Below, in pieces: positions 12,507 to 61,247 of a DNA stretch of 64,000 bases. Positions within the stretch are counted from its first letter, which is position 1. Each line of letters opens with the position of its first letter. The position numbers and the translations under genes are program-made. Location of the stretch: positions 64,001 through 128,000 of IMG/VR virus record IMGVR_UViG_3300009716_000731; one strand, 5' to 3'. The notes beneath the pieces are model-generated. The model saw only the letters and a program-made list of their open reading frames with translations, was not told where the DNA came from and made no database searches. This DNA is from a virus. Its lineage: Duplodnaviria; Caudoviricetes.

Positions 12507-12617
12507 ATGCCACTACCGCATTATCCCAATCCACAGGGATTTAATTGGAGTCCTAAGTTCAAGAAAATACTTAGAATTAAGAAGATTAAGAGAATTATAG
12601 AGAAACTTGAAAAATAA
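12507..12617 (+). CDS. 36-aa peptide: tail-tube-like N-terminus plus RxxKIxxII tag
   Basis: MPLPHYPNPQGFNWSPKFKKILRIKKIKRIIEKLEK*, starts 1 nt after terS stop; not in ORF track. Confidence 0.6.
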   Translation: MPLPHYPNPQGFNWSPKFKKILRIKKIKRIIEKLEK

Positions 12618-16234: not shown

Positions 16235-18799
16235 ATGAGATATTTAGATAAAAGATCTGACTTTCTTTCGCAAAGACAACATATAAAAACAGATAAAATT
16301 GAGTCTATTTATGAAGCACAATCAGGTGCTGGTCCTTTTGCTAATGATGTTGGTTGGAATGATTCCTTATTGGGTAGATTGATAAATCATATGATTAGAA
16401 AAGCTAGAATAGCAGCTAAAGTTCCAAGAATAAAAAATCTTATAGAGAGATTAAATGCTGCTTTCGAAGAGTTAGTTGGACAGTCTACCGTATTTAAGAC
16501 TAGTTCTGAAACACAAACAATAGCTATGCAAGCTCAAGTTGCATCTTTTTATTTTGAATTAATAAAAGCAGTTGAATCTGGTGAACCTGTATCTATATTA
16601 AAGAAACTAACAGATGAAGCAATAATAAAAACAAAAAGTTTGCCAGATTTTGATAAAAAGGATATTTTATTAGAGGAATTAAAGAAGTTTAGAGAATTTT
16701 TGGATCAATTTAAGGATGGTGAAGAATCTATAACTGGTGAAGATGATTCAAATGATGATGTTTCTCAGTATGGGATTATGGTTAAAAATCTACAAGCTTT
16801 AGCTCTTATTTTAGCAAACTATAAAAAAGTTAATTTAGGTGTTACGACACAATCGAAATTAATACCAGAATTAATTAAGGATAAAGAATATATGCTTGAT
16901 GATGATGTTGTTAAGTTAGTAGATCCTACAAATGTTGGAACACCAGAACAACCGAAAGTTACTGTTATTTATAGAGATAAGGTTACAAAAACATATAAGC
17001 CTAATTCTAAACCAGTTGTTATTCCTGCTGCTAAGTTAAAAGAATTAACAAAAGAAGCAGCAGCTCCTATCAGAAGTAATTCATATGGTAATGTCGGAGG
17101 TTCTAATATTGATAGAAATAATGTTACTGGTACAGAAGATCATTTAACACAAGCTTTTTCAAAGCTTAAAAAAGATATAGAGGTTTTAATATCAGCTAAA
17201 GAAAAAGGAATATCAGTTGATAATAATTTTATTAATGATATTTTAACTAATTCAAAGAATACAAAGTCTAAAGATATTATAAAGTCTTTATATACTGAGA
17301 TTAATAGATATTTAGTTGGTGATAAGAAAGCTACAATACAAGAAAGGGATGCTTTATATAAAGAAAGTATTGATATTCTTTCTGATAAAAATAAACTTGC
17401 TATTATTGCTGAGAAAATTGCAAGATTTTCTAAAAGAGCAATTCAGTTTGATGGTCAGAATATGTATGGTGGGTTAGGTGACTTTGGTGCTAATCTAAAG
17501 TCATTTGTAGATACTATTAAGCAAATAAAATCGTTCAAACTAAGTACTATTAGTGAGAGTGTTTTATCATATTCTTTGTTTTTAGAGCAAGTTACTACAT
17601 TAGAAGGAGATTCTAAAAAAATATTAAACTTCTTTAACGAAACTTGTGTTGAGGTTAGAAAATTTACACTAAGTAAGGAAGATTTAGAGAAAGCTAGAAA
17701 GGAATATGAAGAAAAAAGCAAAGATGAATCTGAAGTTATTATGTCTATGGACCCTATTATAGAAATAATGAATCTATTCATAAAATCTTATAAGCTTTAT
17801 ACAGTTAAAACAATTACTAAGAGAACAGAGAATGTTGATACTAATACTTTATCAGAATATACGCCTTTAGGTTCTGCTGATGATACTGGTAGAAAAGGTC
17901 CTTATAGAAATAATAAGCTATTTGATATGTGGGAAGAAGCTGTAAATAATATTAGAAAGAATAGAAAATATCAAGTTTTCTTTACAGATCAAGCTAGTCT
18001 TAGATTACCGTCCGTTCCGGATCCAAATCCTTATAACTCAGAAGACTGGAAAGTTAGACCAAAAGCAGGTAGACAATTTAGTAAATTTATTAATGATGTT
18101 ATGGATGGTGATAAATTATATAAATCATCTGATAGTAGAGGTTCTGTTGCTAGATTTTTAGATGAATATTTTGGTGATGGTTCTACTACAAAAGAACAAC
18201 AAGGTAGAATAGATAGTACTGGATTACAAGATAATGCTCAGATAGAAGAGCAAATTAATAATAACGCCATTAATCTTAAGATGATTAAAAGTGAGAATAC
18301 TGATGGTAACTATGTTAATACTTTTTTTACCATTACTTTTGATAAGTTAGATAAAGATGGAAAAGAAACTGGAAAAGGTCAATATTCTTTCTATGTTGGA
18401 GATAACGAATTTAATTTAATGTTTAATACTGGGATTAGTTTATTTAGTGATATGCTTACCTCTATTGGTCCTAAGAGAAGTATTGATAAAGGAGAAATGG
18501 ATAATTTGTCTAATAGTAGAGGTGATATGTACTTTACTCGTATTAAAGATATTAGAAATATTCTAGCAGGAAACACTCTTGATTTAGGCTATGTTCAGAT
18601 CGCAAAAGAGTCTAGTCTTAGAAATCAAAAAATAAAATTAACTGGATTATATAGATTAGTCTATGAGAAAGAACCAGGTAAGCTTTATAGATTAGAAGGT
18701 GATGATTTAACAAAATGGAATAATATTTTAAGAAGTAAAAATATACCTAGTATTAAATCTAAAGTAGATATAAAAAATCCTGAAATAAAGAAAGTATAA
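16235..18799 (+). CDS. large tagged hypothetical protein, probable virion or internal head protein
   Basis: 854 aa; MRYLDKRSDFL...IYEA; internal tag-like SYSLFLE; upstream of sheath. Confidence 0.7.
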   Translation: MRYLDKRSDFLSQRQHIKTDKIESIYEAQSGAGPFANDVGWNDSLLGRLINHMIRKARIAAKVPRIKNLIERLNAAFEELVGQSTVFKTSSETQTIAMQAQVASFYFELIKAVESGEPVSILKKLTDEAIIKTKSLPDFDKKDILLEELKKFREFLDQFKDGEESITGEDDSNDDVSQYGIMVKNLQALALILANYKKVNLGVTTQSKLIPELIKDKEYMLDDDVVKLVDPTNVGTPEQPKVTVIYRDKVTKTYKPNSKPVVIPAAKLKELTKEAAAPIRSNSYGNVGGSNIDRNNVTGTEDHLTQAFSKLKKDIEVLISAKEKGISVDNNFINDILTNSKNTKSKDIIKSLYTEINRYLVGDKKATIQERDALYKESIDILSDKNKLAIIAEKIARFSKRAIQFDGQNMYGGLGDFGANLKSFVDTIKQIKSFKLSTISESVLSYSLFLEQVTTLEGDSKKILNFFNETCVEVRKFTLSKEDLEKARKEYEEKSKDESEVIMSMDPIIEIMNLFIKSYKLYTVKTITKRTENVDTNTLSEYTPLGSADDTGRKGPYRNNKLFDMWEEAVNNIRKNRKYQVFFTDQASLRLPSVPDPNPYNSEDWKVRPKAGRQFSKFINDVMDGDKLYKSSDSRGSVARFLDEYFGDGSTTKEQQGRIDSTGLQDNAQIEEQINNNAINLKMIKSENTDGNYVNTFFTITFDKLDKDGKETGKGQYSFYVGDNEFNLMFNTGISLFSDMLTSIGPKRSIDKGEMDNLSNSRGDMYFTRIKDIRNILAGNTLDLGYVQIAKESSLRNQKIKLTGLYRLVYEKEPGKLYRLEGDDLTKWNNILRSKNIPSIKSKVDIKNPEIKKV

Positions 18800-44040: not shown

Positions 44041-45363
44041 ATGAGTAAATTAACAACATTAAATGGTATTAATGACCAAGATTTATTGAATCAAATTTTT
44101 AATGATGAGATCACGGTCTTTGAGGACATTCAAGGTAGTAAAATATGGGTAAATTGGAATGGAAAAGAATTTACAATAAAAACGAAATCGCTATCTAATG
44201 ATCCTATTAATTTAATAGACTTAGCTATGCAGAACTATTATAATCCAGCATTAAATTATTTTAATAATTTAGATTATAGAGTTAAAAGTCTTTTAAATAG
44301 AAAATGGTGGTTCTGCTTTGAATATTTTCCGGATGAGCAACCAGCAAACATAAGATACAACCAAGTCCCTAAAAATAATTTAGTTCTTACTGCAATTAAT
44401 AAGTCTGGTAAGTATGAATTTAATTTAGATGAGTTAGTAGAATACGCTAGATTATTTGATGTAGATCATCTACCTGTGGTTTATCAAGGTAAGCTAACAG
44501 ATAAGATGATTGAAGCTATAAAGTATTTCTTAAATACAAGTGAGGCAGACTTAGAATATATTTTTGGTGATAAGTCATTTGCATTCTTCTTTTACAAAAT
44601 ATTAAATCCATTAGTTGATAGTTCATTTTTAATGGATGAAGAATTTCAAAAAAATATTGAAAAGCTTATCATAAGATGTAAGTCAAATGATTTGTCATTT
44701 GAAGTTCTTAATCCTTTATATAATAGGCTTAGTACTGAAAATGATACTGAGTTTGTTGAGATTTATACTTTAATCTTGGTTAATTTCTTAAATTTCTGTC
44801 AGTCTATTAACTTAGAAGATATTAAATTAAAAGGAGAAACTAAAGATGAGATTTATATCTATCTAATTTGTAAGTTATTTAATATTTATATAGGAGAAGT
44901 TAAGTCAGACCTTTTAGACTTTGATTTTATAGTTCCTGATTTTTTTGATAAAGAAAAGTTCAAAATAAATACTGAACTAATTAAAAATAAGCTAACAAAA
45001 GAGTATTTATCTGAGTCCGATAAATTAGAGTATATATTTAAGGTTATTTTAGGATCATTTAACAAAAAAAGAAAAAAAGCTATTGGTATATTTACCGATA
45101 ATACAGTTAAGTTATTTAATAATTTTGTTGATGATATTCAAAATCACATTGATAAATACTTAAACAGAATGCATGAAATTGAGCTTACAAGAGCTGGTCT
45201 TGTTGACTTCTCAGATTTCTTAGATCTTAAATATGATATGGATGCTGATGGTGAGGTTTATCCTGATGTTTACTCTGAGTTTGAAAAAGGAGTCAAGCAA
45301 GATAATAAGAAAAAGAAAGCAGGAGGAAAATTTCCAATACAACAACAAAAACCTACATTATAG
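44041..45363 (+). CDS. RNA-ligase-fold (Rnl2-like) protein lacking the catalytic lysine
   Basis: ITVFEDIQGSKI at motif I position (normally EKxDG); FCFEY; LPVVYQG. Confidence 0.5.
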   Translation: MSKLTTLNGINDQDLLNQIFNDEITVFEDIQGSKIWVNWNGKEFTIKTKSLSNDPINLIDLAMQNYYNPALNYFNNLDYRVKSLLNRKWWFCFEYFPDEQPANIRYNQVPKNNLVLTAINKSGKYEFNLDELVEYARLFDVDHLPVVYQGKLTDKMIEAIKYFLNTSEADLEYIFGDKSFAFFFYKILNPLVDSSFLMDEEFQKNIEKLIIRCKSNDLSFEVLNPLYNRLSTENDTEFVEIYTLILVNFLNFCQSINLEDIKLKGETKDEIYIYLICKLFNIYIGEVKSDLLDFDFIVPDFFDKEKFKINTELIKNKLTKEYLSESDKLEYIFKVILGSFNKKRKKAIGIFTDNTVKLFNNFVDDIQNHIDKYLNRMHEIELTRAGLVDFSDFLDLKYDMDADGEVYPDVYSEFEKGVKQDNKKKKAGGKFPIQQQKPTL

Positions 45364-45394
45364 TAGGTTTTTATTTACAAAATAATTTTATTAT

Positions 45395-45598
45395 ATGAAT
45401 ATAAATACTATTGATTTAAATGTCAAATCAATTGATATTAAAGCAGGTGTGAGAAAATTAAGAACTAAATGGACTACTGAAATGGTTAATGATTTAAGTT
45501 TTCATAGTGGATTTGGTGATATTGAACGACAATTAATCGTATCTATACGCAAGGAAAAAAGAATAAAAACTATCAATAATTTACTAAACAATATCTAA
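45395..45598 (+). CDS. 67-aa major-capsid-fragment-like protein with C-terminal tag
   Basis: IDLNVKSIDIKAGVRKLRTKWTTEMVNDL resembles gp23-family A(K/E)xRxL(K/R)AxW(T/S)xExxQDL; ends KRIKTINNLL. Confidence 0.6.
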   Translation: MNINTIDLNVKSIDIKAGVRKLRTKWTTEMVNDLSFHSGFGDIERQLIVSIRKEKRIKTINNLLNNI

Positions 45599-45616
45599 GT
45601 TTTCAGTATAAAAGTT

Positions 45617-46834
45617 ATGTATATAGAAACAAAAACTATTAACCAATATAGAATAAATAAAAAGATAAAACAAAAGTCTTTTTCTTTACATTTTTTACCT
45701 GAATGCTTAAATGATCTTGTAAAAAGAAAACACATTGAGTTCTCAAATCAAAAATTAAAAGTAGATTATCTAGTAGATATAGTTCATAATTTACTACTTA
45801 AATATTATTTCAAAAAAGAAAATAAATTTGCACTAAATGCAACAATACTTAAAAGTAAGTATGGTTATCTTTACAACTACTATATTTCCTTTCTTATTGA
45901 GAATAATATTATTCGATTGCATACAAATTATAAAAAAGGTAAAACATCTAGAATATATTCATTAAATGAAAAGATTTTTACACAAAGAATAAATCGATAT
46001 AGAAACTATGATAAAGTCTTACTAAAAAAGTATAAAGGTAAGTTTATTGAAATGACATCTGAGGATTCAGATATATCTATAATTGAACCTTCTGTTCGAG
46101 AAAAACTAGTAAATGATTTATTTAATGTTAAGATTGACTACGATAGAGCTATATTCTTTTTAGACTTACTTAAAAATGAGGATATTGATATTTACAATAG
46201 AAATATTTACTCTGTTGAGTGTATAAATGATAGTCATATATTTTATCACTTTGACTCATATGGTAGAATGCATACAAATTATACTATATTAAAATCATTT
46301 ATTCGTAAAAACTGTTTATTAATTGATGGTTTAGAAACTTGTGAGTTAGATATACCAAATAGTCAGCCATTATTTTTGGTAAAGTTAATAAATATTAGTA
46401 ATTTTGGTAATGTAGATCAAGATGAGTTTGAGTTATTTAAGAAGCTAACTATTGATGGTAATTTTTATCAGTATTTTATGTCAATGATTGGTGAGACAAA
46501 TAAAAAGTTAGTGAAAGAAATGACTTATAAAGTTCTCTTTGGTAGAAATATTGCAAGCTCGAAGGCAGATAAGCATTTCAAGTCTTTATTTCCTACGATA
46601 TATGACTTTATAAAAACGTATAAAAAAGAAAATGGAGATTATCGTGTTCTTGCGTATGATTTACAAAGAGCAGAGTCATCATTAGTATTTAATAAGATAA
46701 TAAGTAAAGTGATGAATTACTATCCTGAAATAAAAATGATAACAATACACGATAGTATTGTTGTTCCTAAAATATATAGAGAGGAAGTAAATATCATTTT
46801 TGAGAATGAATTAAAAAAAGAATTTAATATATAG
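45617..46834 (+). CDS. compact family-A-polymerase-like protein with N-terminal wHTH-like region
   Basis: YGRMH, motif A ELDIPNSQP, motif B-like KxxxYxxLFG, LQRAES, motif C IHDS. Confidence 0.6.
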   Translation: MYIETKTINQYRINKKIKQKSFSLHFLPECLNDLVKRKHIEFSNQKLKVDYLVDIVHNLLLKYYFKKENKFALNATILKSKYGYLYNYYISFLIENNIIRLHTNYKKGKTSRIYSLNEKIFTQRINRYRNYDKVLLKKYKGKFIEMTSEDSDISIIEPSVREKLVNDLFNVKIDYDRAIFFLDLLKNEDIDIYNRNIYSVECINDSHIFYHFDSYGRMHTNYTILKSFIRKNCLLIDGLETCELDIPNSQPLFLVKLINISNFGNVDQDEFELFKKLTIDGNFYQYFMSMIGETNKKLVKEMTYKVLFGRNIASSKADKHFKSLFPTIYDFIKTYKKENGDYRVLAYDLQRAESSLVFNKIISKVMNYYPEIKMITIHDSIVVPKIYREEVNIIFENELKKEFNI

Positions 46835-47562: not shown

Positions 47563-48289
47563 ATTTTATATAAAACCATTGTATTTTTTTATCCCAGTTA
47601 TTGGTTTCCTTAAAGAAATACTGATCATTATCTGTTGATTTAATAACATATACACCTGTTGATGATGTTTTAAGTGTTTCAGTTCTTAACACAATTACTT
47701 TATCTTTATCAATTTTATTATCTGTAATTATTTTAATACCACTTAGAAAGTTATTATTTTCAATAGAAAGATAGAATCTTTCGTATTGAGTAATTGGATT
47801 CATCAAAACTACATTTGCTGGTCCTACTCGACCATTCATAGCAATTAAATTACCACCCATCAATACTTTTGACATAATCATTCTTTCGAGTTGATTTACA
47901 TCAGTTGAGCTTGAAACTGTAACATCTGTTAAAGTTTGTTTACTATTTACTGTGTGATTTATATAAAAATCTAAAACCTCGTTATATAAGTCTTCATACG
48001 AAATGAATTTTTTACCACTTATAGAACTTTCAAATATCTTCATAGATATAGTAGGAAAGTCATCTTGATCTTTTATAAAAACTCGATCATTTAATTTCTC
48101 TTCTTTTTCTTCTCCTAATAAAACATCAATAGTAATTTCTCTATTCATAGCTATGTTTTCAGCTTTATTTTCTTCAACTGCGTCTAAAAAATGAAACTTA
48201 GCAACATTACTACCAATTGCTTTCTCATCAAAGCAACATATATCTTTTAATTTCTCTTTGAATTCTTCCTCTCTATTAAAATGTATCAT
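47561..48289 (-). CDS. degenerate major-capsid-like (gp23 A-domain-like) protein
   Basis: SKVLMGGNLIAMNGRVGPANVVLMN...LSGIKIITDNKI..DKVIVLR resembles the gp23 IAxxxxRGxxNFII...VYxD region; internal NREITIDVLL tag. Confidence 0.55.
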   Translation of the reverse strand: MIHFNREEEFKEKLKDICCFDEKAIGSNVAKFHFLDAVEENKAENIAMNREITIDVLLGEEKEEKLNDRVFIKDQDDFPTISMKIFESSISGKKFISYEDLYNEVLDFYINHTVNSKQTLTDVTVSSSTDVNQLERMIMSKVLMGGNLIAMNGRVGPANVVLMNPITQYERFYLSIENNNFLSGIKIITDNKIDKDKVIVLRTETLKTSSTGVYVIKSTDNDQYFFKETNNWDKKIQWFYIK

Positions 48290-49034
48290 ATAAATTTTTC
48301 ATTCCTATTTTTTGAAAACTCATGTTTATGGTTTTTGCTAAATCTTCTTTTTTAAGATTACATAAGTTATTTAGTAACTGTAAGTTATTTTGATAAAGTT
48401 TCATATCTGGTTGTACTCTACTATGATACAAGTGATAGCATCGGTTAGGCATTTCGGTCCAAGTTAAAAAGTTTTTAACCTTATGTGATATAAAGTCATC
48501 TTCTGCACCCCAACCCTTAAAGTCTTCATTCCAACCAGCTATTTTGTGTATAGCTGCTTTTCTGAAAATACAAATTCCACCGCATAATGGAACTTTTTGA
48601 TGATCAGTTTCGCCTCTACCCGGTCTATCTATTTTGAAAATTTGATCAAATGGTTGATTAGATTCATGTGGTTGTAAATCAACCACTGATTTATATGGAT
48701 TTACCATCTCGAATTTATCAAGTTGTTTAATTGCTTCTATAAATTGGTTGGGTTCCATAACTAAATCTGCATCTGAGAAAACAATTACATCAGATTTAGC
48801 ATATTTAAGAGCTACATTAAAAGCCCAAGATTTATTATAAGCTTTATCTGATTTAAGAAATATATGTCTTGCTTTAATATTTAAGTGTGATATTTTTGAG
48901 TGCTTATCTTGCTCAATAACAATTACATCAACATTGCTAAATCCGTTTACCCAATCTAATGCTCTTTTAAGATTATTAAATCGTTCTAAGTTATGTCTAT
49001 AACCTATTATATAAGTGAAAGAATATTTATTCAT
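48276..49034 (-). CDS. GT-A glycosyltransferase (GT2/GT7 galactosyltransferase-like)
   Basis: VIEQD, NKSWAFN, DAD, GWNEDFKGWGAEDD, HLYH. Confidence 0.88.
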   Translation of the reverse strand: MNKYSFTYIIGYRHNLERFNNLKRALDWVNGFSNVDVIVIEQDKHSKISHLNIKARHIFLKSDKAYNKSWAFNVALKYAKSDVIVFSDADLVMEPNQFIEAIKQLDKFEMVNPYKSVVDLQPHESNQPFDQIFKIDRPGRGETDHQKVPLCGGICIFRKAAIHKIAGWNEDFKGWGAEDDFISHKVKNFLTWTEMPNRCYHLYHSRVQPDMKLYQNNLQLLNNLCNLKKEDLAKTINMSFQKIGMKNLYDTF

Positions 49035-52218: not shown

Positions 52219-52715
52219 AATATTTACTGTTAAATTACTTTAATGAAGTAATATGGGTTAAAGAAAATCCAGCTTTTTTTGATATTATTGAAAAGAGTAG
52301 GGTTAATGGTGAGCTAATTATAAATAATAAACAAGAAATATATCACTTAAAAGAGTTGTTGGTCTCTTCAATTGAAGAGCTTAACAACTCTTTATATTTA
52401 CACCTATTAGATTGTAATAGCTATGATATAAGTTATTATACAAAGGGTATTAGAAAAATATTTGGTAATAATGATAGATTGATTTATAATGAATTATCAA
52501 AATTAGATCAAAAAAATACTTGGATCATAACTTCACAAAAGATATTAGAAAGATTTTTCTTTACTCGTAAGACAGTATGTTTTAATGTTTATGTTTGTGA
52601 TTTATTTGATGATAAGATAGTTATTGGAAGTAAAGACTCAAAACTTATATTGAATGAAAATTTGAAAGAATTTTATTTAGATTTATCTAACATAAAGATA
52701 TTAAACTTAAAATAA
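52200..52715 (+). CDS. hypothetical protein, possibly a highly degenerate capsid A-domain-like paralog
   Basis: NTWIITSQKI...FNVYVCDLFDDKIVIG weakly parallels 47561..48289. Confidence 0.4.
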   Translation: MDTDSIEYLLLNYFNEVIWVKENPAFFDIIEKSRVNGELIINNKQEIYHLKELLVSSIEELNNSLYLHLLDCNSYDISYYTKGIRKIFGNNDRLIYNELSKLDQKNTWIITSQKILERFFFTRKTVCFNVYVCDLFDDKIVIGSKDSKLILNENLKEFYLDLSNIKILNLK

Positions 52716-52738
52716 AAAAGTCGCTCAAAGCGACTTTT
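52714..52738. terminator. bidirectional intrinsic terminator
   Basis: AAAAAAGTCGCT-caa-AGCGACTTTT. Confidence 0.8.
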
Positions 52739-53067
52739 TATTCTATATATGTTATTTTCATATTTAATGATTTAGCTAATTCTATTTCGGCTAATACACC
52801 AGTAGATTTATCCCATCCATCTAATTTATAGACGAACATTTCATCACATTTGTATAAGAATGTTTCGCAAAAATTTTTCCAAAACTCCCAGTCTCCTGGC
52901 ATTTCTTTATAGTTTAATAGAGTGTGTCCATAAACTATTGGTGACATAACTACCATTCCGTTTGCAACTAATTCTGCAACTTTTTTACAAGTTAAATCAT
53001 ATCTATTTATTACAACACTTGGATCTTTATCCGAGTAAAGTGAAGCAAAGTAAAACATATTATTCAA
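52738..53067 (-). CDS. DUF1937 / nucleoside 2-deoxyribosyltransferase-like protein
   Basis: YFASLYS, SPIVYGH, GWDKSTGVLAEIELA. Confidence 0.8.
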   Translation of the reverse strand: MNNMFYFASLYSDKDPSVVINRYDLTCKKVAELVANGMVVMSPIVYGHTLLNYKEMPGDWEFWKNFCETFLYKCDEMFVYKLDGWDKSTGVLAEIELAKSLNMKITYIE

Positions 53068-53518
53068 TTCCTAATTCTCTAAGTTTAACATTTCTTTTAT
53101 GAGCATCATCAACAATAAGTTGAACCATTTGTCTATCTACCCATTTATTTTGCATAAATTGAATTACACCACTTATTCTTTGTTGATCTGATGATATTTT
53201 TCTATCATCGGTGGTGAATCCAGTGGCTTTAACTTTAAGCTGTTTTTCGGAGACTTCTACAACTTCAAGTTCATATGTTCCGCTAAATGAATATGACTCT
53301 TTAGTTCCTTGACCATAAATCAATGAATAGTTTGGATAAATTACTTTATCACCTGGTTCAATAGCAATTAAATCATTTTTAATAGACTCTGCTTTTGTTT
53401 TAGCTTTACTAAGTTCATTATTTTGGTTTATCAAATCTAAATTATTAGTAAAAAGTTTATAGTTAAGTACGATGCTTACTAGTAATGCAACCGATAACGA
53501 AATTATTGCTGTAATCAT
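53060..53518 (-). CDS. membrane-anchored protein with C-terminal RxxKLxxL tag
   Basis: N-terminal TM; ends KRNVKLRELGIE. Confidence 0.65.
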   Translation of the reverse strand: MITAIISLSVALLVSIVLNYKLFTNNLDLINQNNELSKAKTKAESIKNDLIAIEPGDKVIYPNYSLIYGQGTKESYSFSGTYELEVVEVSEKQLKVKATGFTTDDRKISSDQQRISGVIQFMQNKWVDRQMVQLIVDDAHKRNVKLRELGIE

Positions 53519-59499: not shown

Positions 59500-60207
59500 T
59501 TATCCAATATATCTATTACCTTTTGATAAATTTTCATTTGCCCATAGTGGTTGAAAGTTTGTATGATGATTTAGCTTATAGATCTCTTCAACATTTTTAG
59601 CATAGCTTATTGGTATTATATGATCTAAGTGCCAAAGACCATGATTAGATAATGTCATTCCCTCTTGAAGTTTTGATTCTATATAATTTCTAAATTCATC
59701 CAAAGAGCAACCTAATATTTCTTCTGTCTTTTTATCTTTAGAATTTTTCAGTGACTGAGATATTCTTTTTCTTATACTTGATGTTAGTTTATATAAAGGA
59801 TTATTATTTATTCTATCTTTTTCATAATCATTTCTACAACCATTACAATGTGAATTTAATTTATCTGGCTTTGAATTATCTTTACCAAAATTTTTCATAT
59901 CCTTTATCTCTACACACTTTGTGCATAATTTTTCATTTTCTTTTAGATGTTCTCTAATTATAGAATATTTTAGTATTTTACCATCTAAATTTCTATTACT
60001 TTGTTGGTATAATTTCATTTTTTGCAATCTTTCATATCTATTTTTATAATGATTTTCTAATGACTTTTTATTTCTTATATCTCTATTTTTTGCGTGATCT
60101 ATCTTTCTACATTCTTTACACTCTGATCTGAGCTCATCTTTAGAAGCACTTCTTTTCCCAAAATAGAAACTTTCTTTTTCAACTTTACATATGCAGCAAG
60201 TTTTCAT
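59500..60207 (-). mobile_element. free-standing HNH-type endonuclease
   Basis: Two Zn-finger pairs, LGCS, WHLDHIIP, HHTNFQPLWA..NLSK; paralog of 51631..52218. Confidence 0.8.
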
Positions 60208-60284
60208 ATCTATTTTTATTTTTATTTATATATTAAAAAATAAAAATCAATTTCTTCAATAGAATACTCAATTAAAATTAATAT

Positions 60285-61247
60285 TTACAAAAATAATTTT
60301 TTTAGTTTTCCCAATAAAGATATGCCAGATATAATTGGATCTGTTGCAGATTTTAGTATTAAATCATACTCACATACAAGATTTGATACCTCAAATAGTT
60401 TATTCACACTTTCTCTTTTCTCTTTTATACACCAATCTATAAATTGTCTTCCTAATAGATTTATCATAACATCTATTTTATCCGCACCAAAGTTATTCAT
60501 CAAAAAGTGATAAGTTTGTTCAAAATCATTTTCTTGATATAGAAAGTTATATAAGTCAAGTTTTACTTTATTTGAGATTGTATTATCTGAACTACCGATA
60601 GAACCAGTTTCTAAATAGCTCTGAACTTCAACTAAAGTTGCTCTAAAATCAGGAAATTTTTTAGTTATTATAGAAACTAAGTCTGTTTTTGGAATCTCTT
60701 TATTCTCTGCTACTAAAATATTATTATTAATTCTTTTATAAATTTCTTGTTTTAAGAATCTTTCTTCGTCAGAAGATTGACAATCAAAATTAATAGTTTT
60801 AATTCTTGATTTAAGTCCATCTGTAATCTTATTGATATGGTTTGTAGTGATAATAAATCTTACTTTGTTATTATATCTTTCAATAAAAGCTTTGAATGCA
60901 TCTTGGAAGTTTATAGACACTCTTTCAAACTCATCTAAGAAAACAAACTTAATATCAGAATCAGTATCCATCATTGGTGTAAACTTACAGAAGTCATCAA
61001 TTTCATTTCTTAAAATTTCAATAGAGGTGTCCATAGAACAGTTAAGTTCTAAGAAAGGTGTTTCTTTATGATATTTACCGACTAAAATTCTTGCTAAACT
61101 GGTTTTACCTGTTCCATAGTGACCATAGAATATATAGTGTTGATTTACACCACTCTCAAATTCTTTTCTGATCCTTGGTAAAAGTATTATATCTTCGTAG
61201 TTTTTGGGTCTCCATTTCTCCCATAATAATAATTTATTTACTGACAT
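60285..61247 (-). CDS. sliding clamp loader ATPase subunit (T4 gp44 / RFC-like)
   Basis: WEKWRP, GHYGTGKT, LDEFE, FIITTN, SR, FPDFR. Confidence 0.92.
   Translation of the reverse strand: MSVNKLLLWEKWRPKNYEDIILLPRIRKEFESGVNQHYIFYGHYGTGKTSLARILVGKYHKETPFLELNCSMDTSIEILRNEIDDFCKFTPMMDTDSDIKFVFLDEFERVSINFQDAFKAFIERYNNKVRFIITTNHINKITDGLKSRIKTINFDCQSSDEERFLKQEIYKRINNNILVAENKEIPKTDLVSIITKKFPDFRATLVEVQSYLETGSIGSSDNTISNKVKLDLYNFLYQENDFEQTYHFLMNNFGADKIDVMINLLGRQFIDWCIKEKRESVNKLFEVSNLVCEYDLILKSATDPIISGISLLGKLKKLFL

Follow-up and report, generated by a model that had tools for sequence, protein, structure and literature searches.

A 67-residue open reading frame on the plus strand of a viral contig (positions 45395..45598, ATG to TAA) encodes a fragment exapted from a major capsid protein (MCP) of the T4 type (Gp23), as shown by profile comparison, and its product seems to represent a kind of capsid-mimic mini-protein not described before. 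The window analysed here is a stretch of 64,000 nucleotides, covering bases 64001-128000 of a 151-kb viral contig (27% G+C, estimated at about one quarter of the genome) from a “huge” phage with a genome of roughly 635 kb. The mini-gene is real, fixed, and protein-coding, and evolves rapidly under constraint, with its assignment as a stand-alone Gp23 (MCP) fragment with a basic tail drawing on the reading frame itself, Pfam matches, its protein family, synteny, and dN/dS. The most likely target of the product, in a reading we hold tentatively, is the head assembly of the phage's own particles, where it may act as a modulator, staple, or adaptor at capsomer junctions. Read directly, the ORF has exactly the sequence given in the preliminary description of this DNA, and is intact and free-standing as stated there, with the C-terminus of the product (...RKEKRIKTINNLLNNI) confirming the basic tag described as following the capsid segment.

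Homology to the Gp23 capsid family

As the preliminary description had anticipated, the Pfam Gp23 profile (PF07068) matches the mini-protein, with an E-value of 4.6e-5 and a score of 23.4 bits that misses the gathering score of 24.4 by 1 bit, and with residues 3-40 aligned to profile positions 131-168. The PHROG ‘major head protein’ family likewise matches. An exhaustive search of 1.8 billion representatives with a profile of the mini-family returned 38 matches, nearly all of which are stand-alone proteins of 56-79 aa aligned end-to-end, with no full-length capsid protein among the 38. The mini-family comprises ~35 diverged clusters (<50% identity) within this length range, and despite a mean column identity of 27%, its alignment shows a single clear pattern, M-x-x-I-x-L-x-x-x-S-x-E-V-K-A-E-x-R-x-L-R-x-x-W-T-x-E-M-x-x-D-L ... 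R-K-x-S-I-x-K-I-F. Searched individually, 33 of 36 diverged family members match Gp23 (E<=0.01, best E 1.6e-12), and because of these individual matches the homology of the mini-protein to the Gp23 capsid family can be regarded as secure and well beyond chance. The mini-protein covers ~60 of the 376 Gp23 profile positions (about 131-194), with the full HK97-type fold (A and P domains, spine helix, and N-arm) absent, as are the P-domain sheet and the insertion domain. It is a homologous capsid fragment, not a capsid subunit, and cannot form a capsomer, in agreement with the earlier view that 67 residues are too few for an HK97 fold.

Alignment of the family profile with T4 gp23 in solved heads covers residues 253-298 (E = 2.8e-4), with the vertex protein gp24 matched weakly, and the region represented in the mini-protein corresponds overall to T4 gp23 residues 253-311. 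This alignment returns the same T4 string as cited in the preliminary description, which had recognised a conserved gp23-family piece, the strand leading into the spine helix. Residues 3-25 (45401..45469, plus strand) form an extended or strand region equivalent to T4 gp23 ~253-269, with R20-K-L-R23 aligned to T4 R264-K267 in the strand before the short helix; this region is unstructured in the AlphaFold2 model of the isolated monomer, and is the fastest-evolving part of the mini-gene. Residues 26-34 (W-T-T-E-M-V-N-D-L; 45470..45496, plus strand) align with Y270-L278, the short acidic P-domain helix of T4 gp23, and overlap a predicted helix at 28-36, with W26 and E29 near-invariant in the mini-family, and D33 invariant across mini-proteins and MCPs. 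Residues 37-52 (45503..45550, plus strand) comprise an H-S-G-F turn, aligned with T4 H282-G-M284, and a remnant of the proximal spine helix, with the C-terminal helix of the mini-protein corresponding to the T4 spine helix from about residue 286. This spine-helix stretch is shortened or deleted in the orthologs from the complete genomes LR745206.1 and LR756502.1, and is therefore dispensable. The remaining residues, 53-67 (45551..45595, plus strand), form a basic amphipathic tail, K-E-K-R-I-K-T-I-N-N-L-L-N-N-I, distinguished by its constraint and by its recurrence on other tiny ORFs. In T4 gp23, residues 292, 306, and 307 lie in the spine helix, and H282 and M284 in the P-domain, with the head-length mutations A268V, A275T, D285V, and D287V/N flanking the short, negatively charged P-domain helix, which is positioned at the quasi-threefold axes and makes charge contacts with neighbouring capsomers (PMC9546572).

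The AlphaFold model produced with the family alignment (pLDDT 80) leaves the N-terminal 27 residues unstructured, with a short helix spanning 28-36 and a long one spanning 41-66, and this predicted fold is in keeping with a fragment whose strand region depends on a partner. Comparison of the model with the PDB by Foldseek gave no meaningful match, as expected for a coil and two helices. The functional core therefore consists of the strand (R-x-L-[RK]), the acidic short helix (W-[TS]-x-E-[ML]-x-x-D-[LI]), and the tail (R-K-x-[SK]-I-x-K-I-F), elements retained by all orthologs, whilst the spine-helix stretch shrinks or vanishes in the complete relatives.

The resident MCP of the phage is a 564-aa protein encoded 30 kb downstream of the mini-gene (Gp23 E = 8.6e-30). 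BLASTP finds no similarity between the mini-protein and this MCP, and the family HMM scores 10.8 bits at the homologous place, a weak alignment seen by profile only, compared with 50.4 bits for the MCP of Microcystis phage Mel-JY01, 46.8 bits for that of LR756508.1 (a 484-kb phage), and 39.7 bits for those of both Rhodothermus phage RM378 and Campylobacter phage CP21. The question raised in the preliminary description, of whether the mini-protein matches the phage's own capsid or that of another clade, is answered in favour of the canonical MCPs of other clades (40-50 bits), although such likeness may not cleanly tell a decoy from an anti-competitor role. The resident type of MCP is represented by >2000 clusters, on contigs of up to 687 kb, and is very conserved, with the segment homologous to the mini-protein invariant within the clade. 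Its short helix has remained acidic, and an R-x-R-Y strand is present towards its C-terminus, and we infer that this MCP could still offer a partner to an acidic helix of the canonical type. Complex prediction for the mini-protein with the resident MCP, both supplied with alignments and run without controls, gave a score of 0.00, which speaks neither for nor against binding.

The lineage carrying the mini-gene is shown to consist of huge phages of about 610-690 kb, with LR756502.1 and LR745206.1 (634-642 kb) as the closest complete genomes, and with more distant relatives including a 735-kb genome and the Lak phages (PMC7162821). In whole-record searches, LR745206.1 and LR756502.1 each yielded a single full MCP, with no further canonical Gp23, and a second canonical MCP encoded elsewhere as the cognate partner was rejected for both complete relatives. 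Given the high scores of canonical MCPs, the low score of the resident MCP, and the lack of a second canonical Gp23, the mini-protein keeps canonical MCP features that the resident MCP has lost.

Further weak Gp23-like pieces were observed in other genomes. In LR756502.1, a 252-aa frame at 241210-241530 (L032) corresponds to Gp23 profile positions 210-323 (E = 7.5e-4). A weak Gp23-like ORF of 54 aa in LR756504.1 (181380-181523, L079; ...VRKLRVTWTPFVYDF...RRNRLIKIFNMS), located ~2 kb from an MCP with 52% identity, may be a distant homolog of the mini-gene at another position. Aeromonas phage PX29 contains a 160-nt unannotated gap past gene 31 and rIII (L013:3995-4162; NC_023688.1 about 169129-169326), which reads ...VVVKAKPRKLTTRWTFDVENIETEFGDDVVKQLIESIQKEIQNG, in frame past the rIII TGA stop and without an ATG, GTG, or TTG start. 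This frame is matched weakly by the mini-protein HMM (13.7-14.6 bits), and is kept in six cultured Aeromonas T4-like phages (the others including AsFcp_1/2/4 and avDM12-TAAL), with the gap possibly representing a related capsid-fragment ORF in cultivable phages.

Genomic setting and evolutionary constraint

The gene order g160-g91-g440-mini-g405-g49-g179 is conserved, with close homologs of the mini-protein (66-68 aa, 86-94% identity) found in the same order in eight other contigs, one of which is 633 kb in length. The upstream syntenic gene, g440 (44041..45363, plus strand), has no PDB match by phmmer, and ends in TAG TAG, two consecutive amber codons at window positions 45361-45366. Were amber suppressed, g440 would extend by 17 codons to a TGA at 45412-45414, overlapping the start of the mini-gene in another frame. 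The downstream syntenic gene, g405 (45617..46834, plus strand), is a core gene of the lineage with >1300 clusters, and starts 16-18 nt past the mini-gene stop (18 nt in the window). The top 50 Foldseek matches in the PDB to the confident half of its AlphaFold2 model are all family-A DNA polymerases, with the C-terminal half predicted to fold like the palm and fingers of these enzymes (T7, Taq, Bst, and Pol theta), and at 405 aa the product would be an unusually compact polymerase-like protein. By sequence, g405 has no Pfam match and no PDB match (phmmer), with the protein atlas returning unnamed clusters only. Strings resembling motif A (D-I-P-N-S-Q-P-L), motif B (K-x-x-x-Y-K-V-L-F-G), and motif C (H-D-S) can be picked out by eye. 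Thymidylate synthase and glycosyltransferase genes lie nearby, and the neighbourhood of the mini-gene is one of nucleic-acid enzymes, not a head module, with the head genes located 30 kb away.

A read-through fusion of the mini-gene with g405 was considered and rejected, the two sharing a frame in the closest clade only and being offset by +1 elsewhere. Some sublineages have gained a GGACT-family gene, encoded on the opposite strand, between g440 and the mini-gene (L011:749-1081, L087:1910-2242). The pairing of the mini-gene with g405 survives this insertion, which suggests that g405, and not g440, is the gene with which the mini-gene is associated.

The preliminary description had placed the mini-gene after a terminator, and a terminator-like hairpin containing G+C (AAAACCTAC-ATTATA-GTAGGTTTTT; 45344..45375) is indeed found by sequence scan just upstream, at the end of the preceding gene. 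Its terminator-like call in the scan applies to the minus strand, and the plus-strand stem runs into TTTTTATTT. The 45 nt before the ATG of the mini-gene are almost identical in nine relatives, with both intergenic stretches, 45350-45394 and 45599-45616, almost invariant across nine relatives, compared with differences of 10-17% at coding synonymous sites there. This suggests that the flanks hold conserved regulatory signals, putatively the terminator hairpin and perhaps a promoter or signals for translation. The flanks of the mini-gene show no Shine-Dalgarno sequence, and the TATAAATA string within codons 2-5 was rejected as a late promoter, being lost in relatives with a 6-nt deletion.

Among nine close copies, the dN/dS of the mini-gene is 0.27-0.28, compared with 0.46 and 1.15 in the wrong frames and 0.04-0.085 in neighbouring genes, with a codon bootstrap giving an interval of 0.11-0.63 and values >=1 in 0.1% of replicates. 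All three indels seen in the DNA of the mini-gene are multiples of three. When loci were chosen via the downstream gene, g405, and hence independently of the mini-gene, an intact gene encoding a Gp23-matching protein of 69-73 aa was found 16 nt before g405 in 9 of 9 loci, three of them on contigs of 611-640 kb. Both complete GenBank relatives, LR745206.1 and LR756502.1, also carry the mini-gene at the same place, so that it was intact at all loci examined, and it is fixed and syntenic on the contigs and genomes of 611-642 kb on which it is present. Identity to these two genomes is 78% for the MCP, 70-76% for g440, 58-62% for g405, and 30-36% for the mini-protein. Constraint is distributed unevenly along the gene, with a pN/pS of ~0.1 in the tail and ~0.5 over residues 1-36, and the variable sites in the close clade are spread 12/8/12 over the three codon positions, with a third-position excess absent.

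The last of these features, together with the small size of the gene and a dN raised in comparison with its neighbours, is what would be expected of a non-functional remnant of a decayed second capsid gene whose reading frame is still open by chance. Such a remnant is nonetheless very improbable, with the ORF intact and similar in length and position where its neighbours are only 58-76% identical, one motif kept across ~35 clusters at <50% identity, and a dN/dS significantly below 1. The in-frame indels and the 9 of 9 intact loci further contradict a pseudogene, and the neutral decay envisaged in the preliminary description as a possible fate of the homologs is replaced by constraint.

A shared C-terminal tail and sister mini-genes

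The tail consensus of the mini-family, R-K-x-[SK]-I-x-K-I-F, is kept when the helix stretch is deleted, and the tail is the most constrained part of the mini-gene. A loose form of this pattern, R[DEKIN].[KT][IL]..[ILF][ILF], scored in the last 14 residues, is found at the C-terminus of 7 of the 203 genes in the window's genome, compared with 0 of 3068 internal windows. The end of the mini-protein itself, R-I-K-T-I-N-N-L-L-N-N-I, accounts for one of the seven, fitting the loose pattern and not the strict acidic one, with the orthologs of the mini-gene ending in RK.SI.KIF, a basic variant of the tail. The further carriers in this genome are located at G000 17800-18273, 48272-48658, 52687-53208, 60178-60684, and 60689-61114, and at window positions 12507-12617.

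In LR745206.1 (complete, 635 kb), joined from separate pieces (loci L036-L069), the tail is present in 65 of 966 genes, or ~7% of the proteome, compared with 0.44 expected, and the final ~16 residues of 56 of the 65 carriers contain the consensus [IL]-R-[DE]-x-K-[IL]-x-x-[IL]-L. These carriers are almost all ORFans, mostly of 60-150 aa and without a Pfam family, and the C-terminal peptide probably serves as a signal for sorting or docking. When the other carriers here and 59 carriers in LR745206.1 were scanned, Pfam and PHROG gave Gp23 as the sole family match, with no further recognisable virion fragments among them. The tails of the tiny ORFs vary at synonymous sites and are followed by unrelated DNA, and the tail is therefore a portable protein-level module, not a repeated DNA element; a translated DNA repeat and a promoter were both rejected on these grounds. 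The tail also bears a loose resemblance to the C-terminus of the scaffold-like protein (...LIQEDKLSD..A.MERFK..), for which mimicry is not claimed.

In LR745206.1, 12 tiny ORFs (35-83 aa) terminate in the basic variant, R-[RK]-x-[KS]-I-x-x-I-F, and at least four of them are head-protein pieces derived from two parent genes of the 966. These pieces are the mini-gene ortholog, a 67-aa ORF representing the spine-helix segment (Gp23 profile 164-194), of which LR756502.1 has an ortholog, a 75-aa ORF representing the C-terminal strands (profile 302-356) with 36-40% identity to the resident MCP, and an 83-aa ORF (460435-460686, minus strand) containing a few NI.YSEY..ENL repeats (58-60% identity, E 1e-21). 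The parent of this repeat is a 707-aa protein encoded directly upstream of the MCP (198546-200669), with a dozen or more tandem 14-residue repeats, N-I-x-Y-S-E-Y-[IL]-A-E-N-L-D-K, and a poly-acidic stretch. In both LR745206.1 and the window's genome (G000 137856-139016, or L001:2-1162), the gene directly upstream of the MCP occupies the scaffold position. No counterparts of the sister head-protein mini-ORFs were found within the 151 kb of the window's genome.

A distant match to the mini-family, of 118 aa, occurs in an unrelated phage context, and was recovered twice (ENA and JGI). Here, an array of tandem small overlapping ORFs (L019:7768-9288, with a twin at L020:5839-7359) includes three that represent segments of a canonical MCP, with a 78-aa ORF corresponding to residues ~10-49, a 132-aa ORF to residues ~58-116, which we take to cover the Gol-peptide region, and the 118-aa ORF to residues ~287-338. 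The order of these segments departs from that within an MCP gene. A different shared tail, F..Y..[EN]L..[YF]L[NS], is found at the end of several ORFs of the array, one of its ORFs also weakly matching the prohead protease.

Possible roles and relation to known systems

The fixed core-gene status of the mini-gene, and the derivation of its sister ORFs from resident head genes, argue for a role in the phage's own biology. Head assembly is judged the likeliest target because the mini-gene is a universal, syntenic core gene with tailed sisters derived from the resident scaffold-like protein and MCP, although we would place this reading somewhat short of probable. The capsid-derived half would dock, in the style of a ‘microprotein’, by native-like contacts on a Gp23-type capsid protein at the capsomer edge, through strand pairing and the packing of its acidic helix against a basic P-domain patch, with the tail serving as a shared docking or sorting peptide that would lead to a partner common to other tailed mini-proteins. 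Several features sit uneasily with a role in the phage's own heads. The capsid-like half resembles canonical MCPs and not the resident one, even though the resident segment is invariant, and the mini-protein evolves far faster than the MCP, which is unusual for the structural partner of an invariant surface. Furthermore, an operon shared with a polymerase-like gene, near thymidylate synthase and 30 kb from the head genes, hints at non-late expression.

These same features would suit a dominant-negative fragment directed against the canonical T4-type capsids of phages co-infecting the same host, in which the mini-protein would cap a capsomer-edge contact and cause foreign heads to misassemble, with the resident MCP immune through its divergence in this segment. 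We regard this as unlikely, though it deserves the most attention of the alternatives. The gap between the HMM scores of canonical and resident MCPs, the complete relatives that have no second canonical Gp23 to serve, the fast evolution around a conserved contact motif as in an arms race, and an operon context compatible with expression ahead of the late genes are all consistent with it, as are the unrelated phage with an array of mini-ORFs from three canonical-MCP segments, and tblastn matches that include T4-like phages of Bacteroidota-type hosts. However, the mini-gene is universal and syntenic and not patchy, and its tailed sisters are closest to the resident head genes (scaffold-like protein and MCP C-terminus), and would thus poison the phage's own assembly. 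Alternatively, the mini-protein may be one of many tailed small proteins sent to a common destination or partner, for example for packaging into the head or retention by one receptor, with the capsid half serving as raw material and making no capsid contact. The tail being the most constrained element, its survival of internal deletions, and its presence at the same spacing in 65 of 966 genes of LR745206.1, nearly all ORFans, are in keeping with such a role, which is rendered improbable by the retention of the contact motif R.L[RK]..W[TS].E[ML]..D[LI], shared with full MCPs, in ~35 clusters otherwise 27% identical, and by the over-representation of head-protein pieces among the 12 basic-tailed tiny ORFs.

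Two further possibilities are less likely again. Capsid proteins are known to trigger abortive-infection systems, as with the T4 Gol peptide and Lit, or CapRel, and the mini-protein might act as a decoy or blocker that occupies a host immune sensor for a T4-type capsid epitope without triggering it. Its likeness to a canonical and widely conserved MCP motif, its fast evolution, and a possible early-type operon would fit; the resident MCP segment, however, lacks the canonical epitope, so that such a sensor would pose no threat to the phage itself, and the scaffold fragment sharing the tail is left unexplained, making a decoy quite doubtful. We give an equally slender chance to a peptide-tag system for head assembly, in which tailed head-protein pieces would be lattice-anchored adaptors for acid-tailed ORFans. 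Three MCP segments and a scaffold repeat, each bearing R-K-x-K-I-x-x-I-F, would anchor by native-like contacts on the growing capsid or scaffold lattice, and would capture ~50 small ORFans through the complementarity of their acidic tail, R-[DE]-x-K-[IL]-x-x-[IL]-L, so that these proteins are loaded into the head. The 67-aa product would then be the adaptor at the quasi-threefold capsomer junction, with the L019/L020 array and its own shared tail a second invention of the principle.

Whichever role applies, the fragment is not an arbitrary one, being the T4 element of capsomer-to-capsomer charge contact and the site of the classic mutations in head length, and its hosts are the phages with the largest known genomes, in which the setting of capsid size and the handling of dozens of extra proteins are at issue. 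The peptide is small and easy to synthesise, with a predicted docking motif (E29, D33, and R20/R23) and a defined tail providing a testable entry point, and, despite the huge phage being uncultured, laboratory hosts would allow it to be tried on capsids of the T4 type.

The relation of the mini-protein to T4 gp23 (PF07068) is one of sequence homology to residues 253-311, taking in the strand, the short acidic helix, the H282-M284 turn, and the start of the spine helix, with the difference that the mini-protein has a basic tail foreign to capsid proteins, and that its gene lies 30 kb away from that of the real MCP. The eukaryotic ‘microProteins’ (e.g. Id and LITTLE ZIPPER) derive from larger proteins as offshoots of a single domain and work through dominant-negative pairing, and resemble the mini-protein in being stand-alone, conserved offshoots with only an interaction element of the larger protein; they differ in belonging to another domain of life, in targeting transcription factors and not a capsid lattice, and in having no shared C-terminal tail system. 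T4 Soc and lambda gpD are capsid cement or decoration proteins that bind at capsomer junctions and are not derived from an MCP. Their small size and their location are similar to those of the mini-protein, for which a site at the quasi-threefold capsomer junctions is putative, but they have no sequence relation to it.

The closest parallels come from satellites. Ccm of SaPIbov5 is a capsid-protein homolog with a full-length HK97 fold that forms pentons and redirects helper capsid assembly (PMC8569155). Like the mini-protein, Ccm is a capsid homolog encoded apart from the working capsid gene, with native-like lattice contacts supposed, whereas it is borne by a satellite that parasitises another phage, and the mini-protein, a fragment of 67 aa, belongs to the core genome of the phage itself. 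The SaPI proteins CpmB and Rcm, both small and helical, are competitors of the scaffold for the capsid protein (PMC12409344). They share with the mini-protein a small size and a logic of mimicry by fragment, their short C-terminal peptide being thought to bind, and one sister mini-ORF here is likewise a piece of a scaffold-like protein. In contrast, CpmB and Rcm mimic scaffold and not the capsid protein, and are satellite-encoded size-redirection factors backed by experiments. The mini-protein thus shares with these redirectors its derivation from a capsid or scaffold protein, and does not share their encoding by a satellite or pirate. No description of a conserved stand-alone MCP fragment in a phage's own core genome, as part of a tailed set, was found in the literature searched. 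Whilst small-protein mimicry of head proteins is already known from satellites, what appears to be new here is a fragment of an MCP that is maintained in the phage's own core genome and belongs to such a tailed set.
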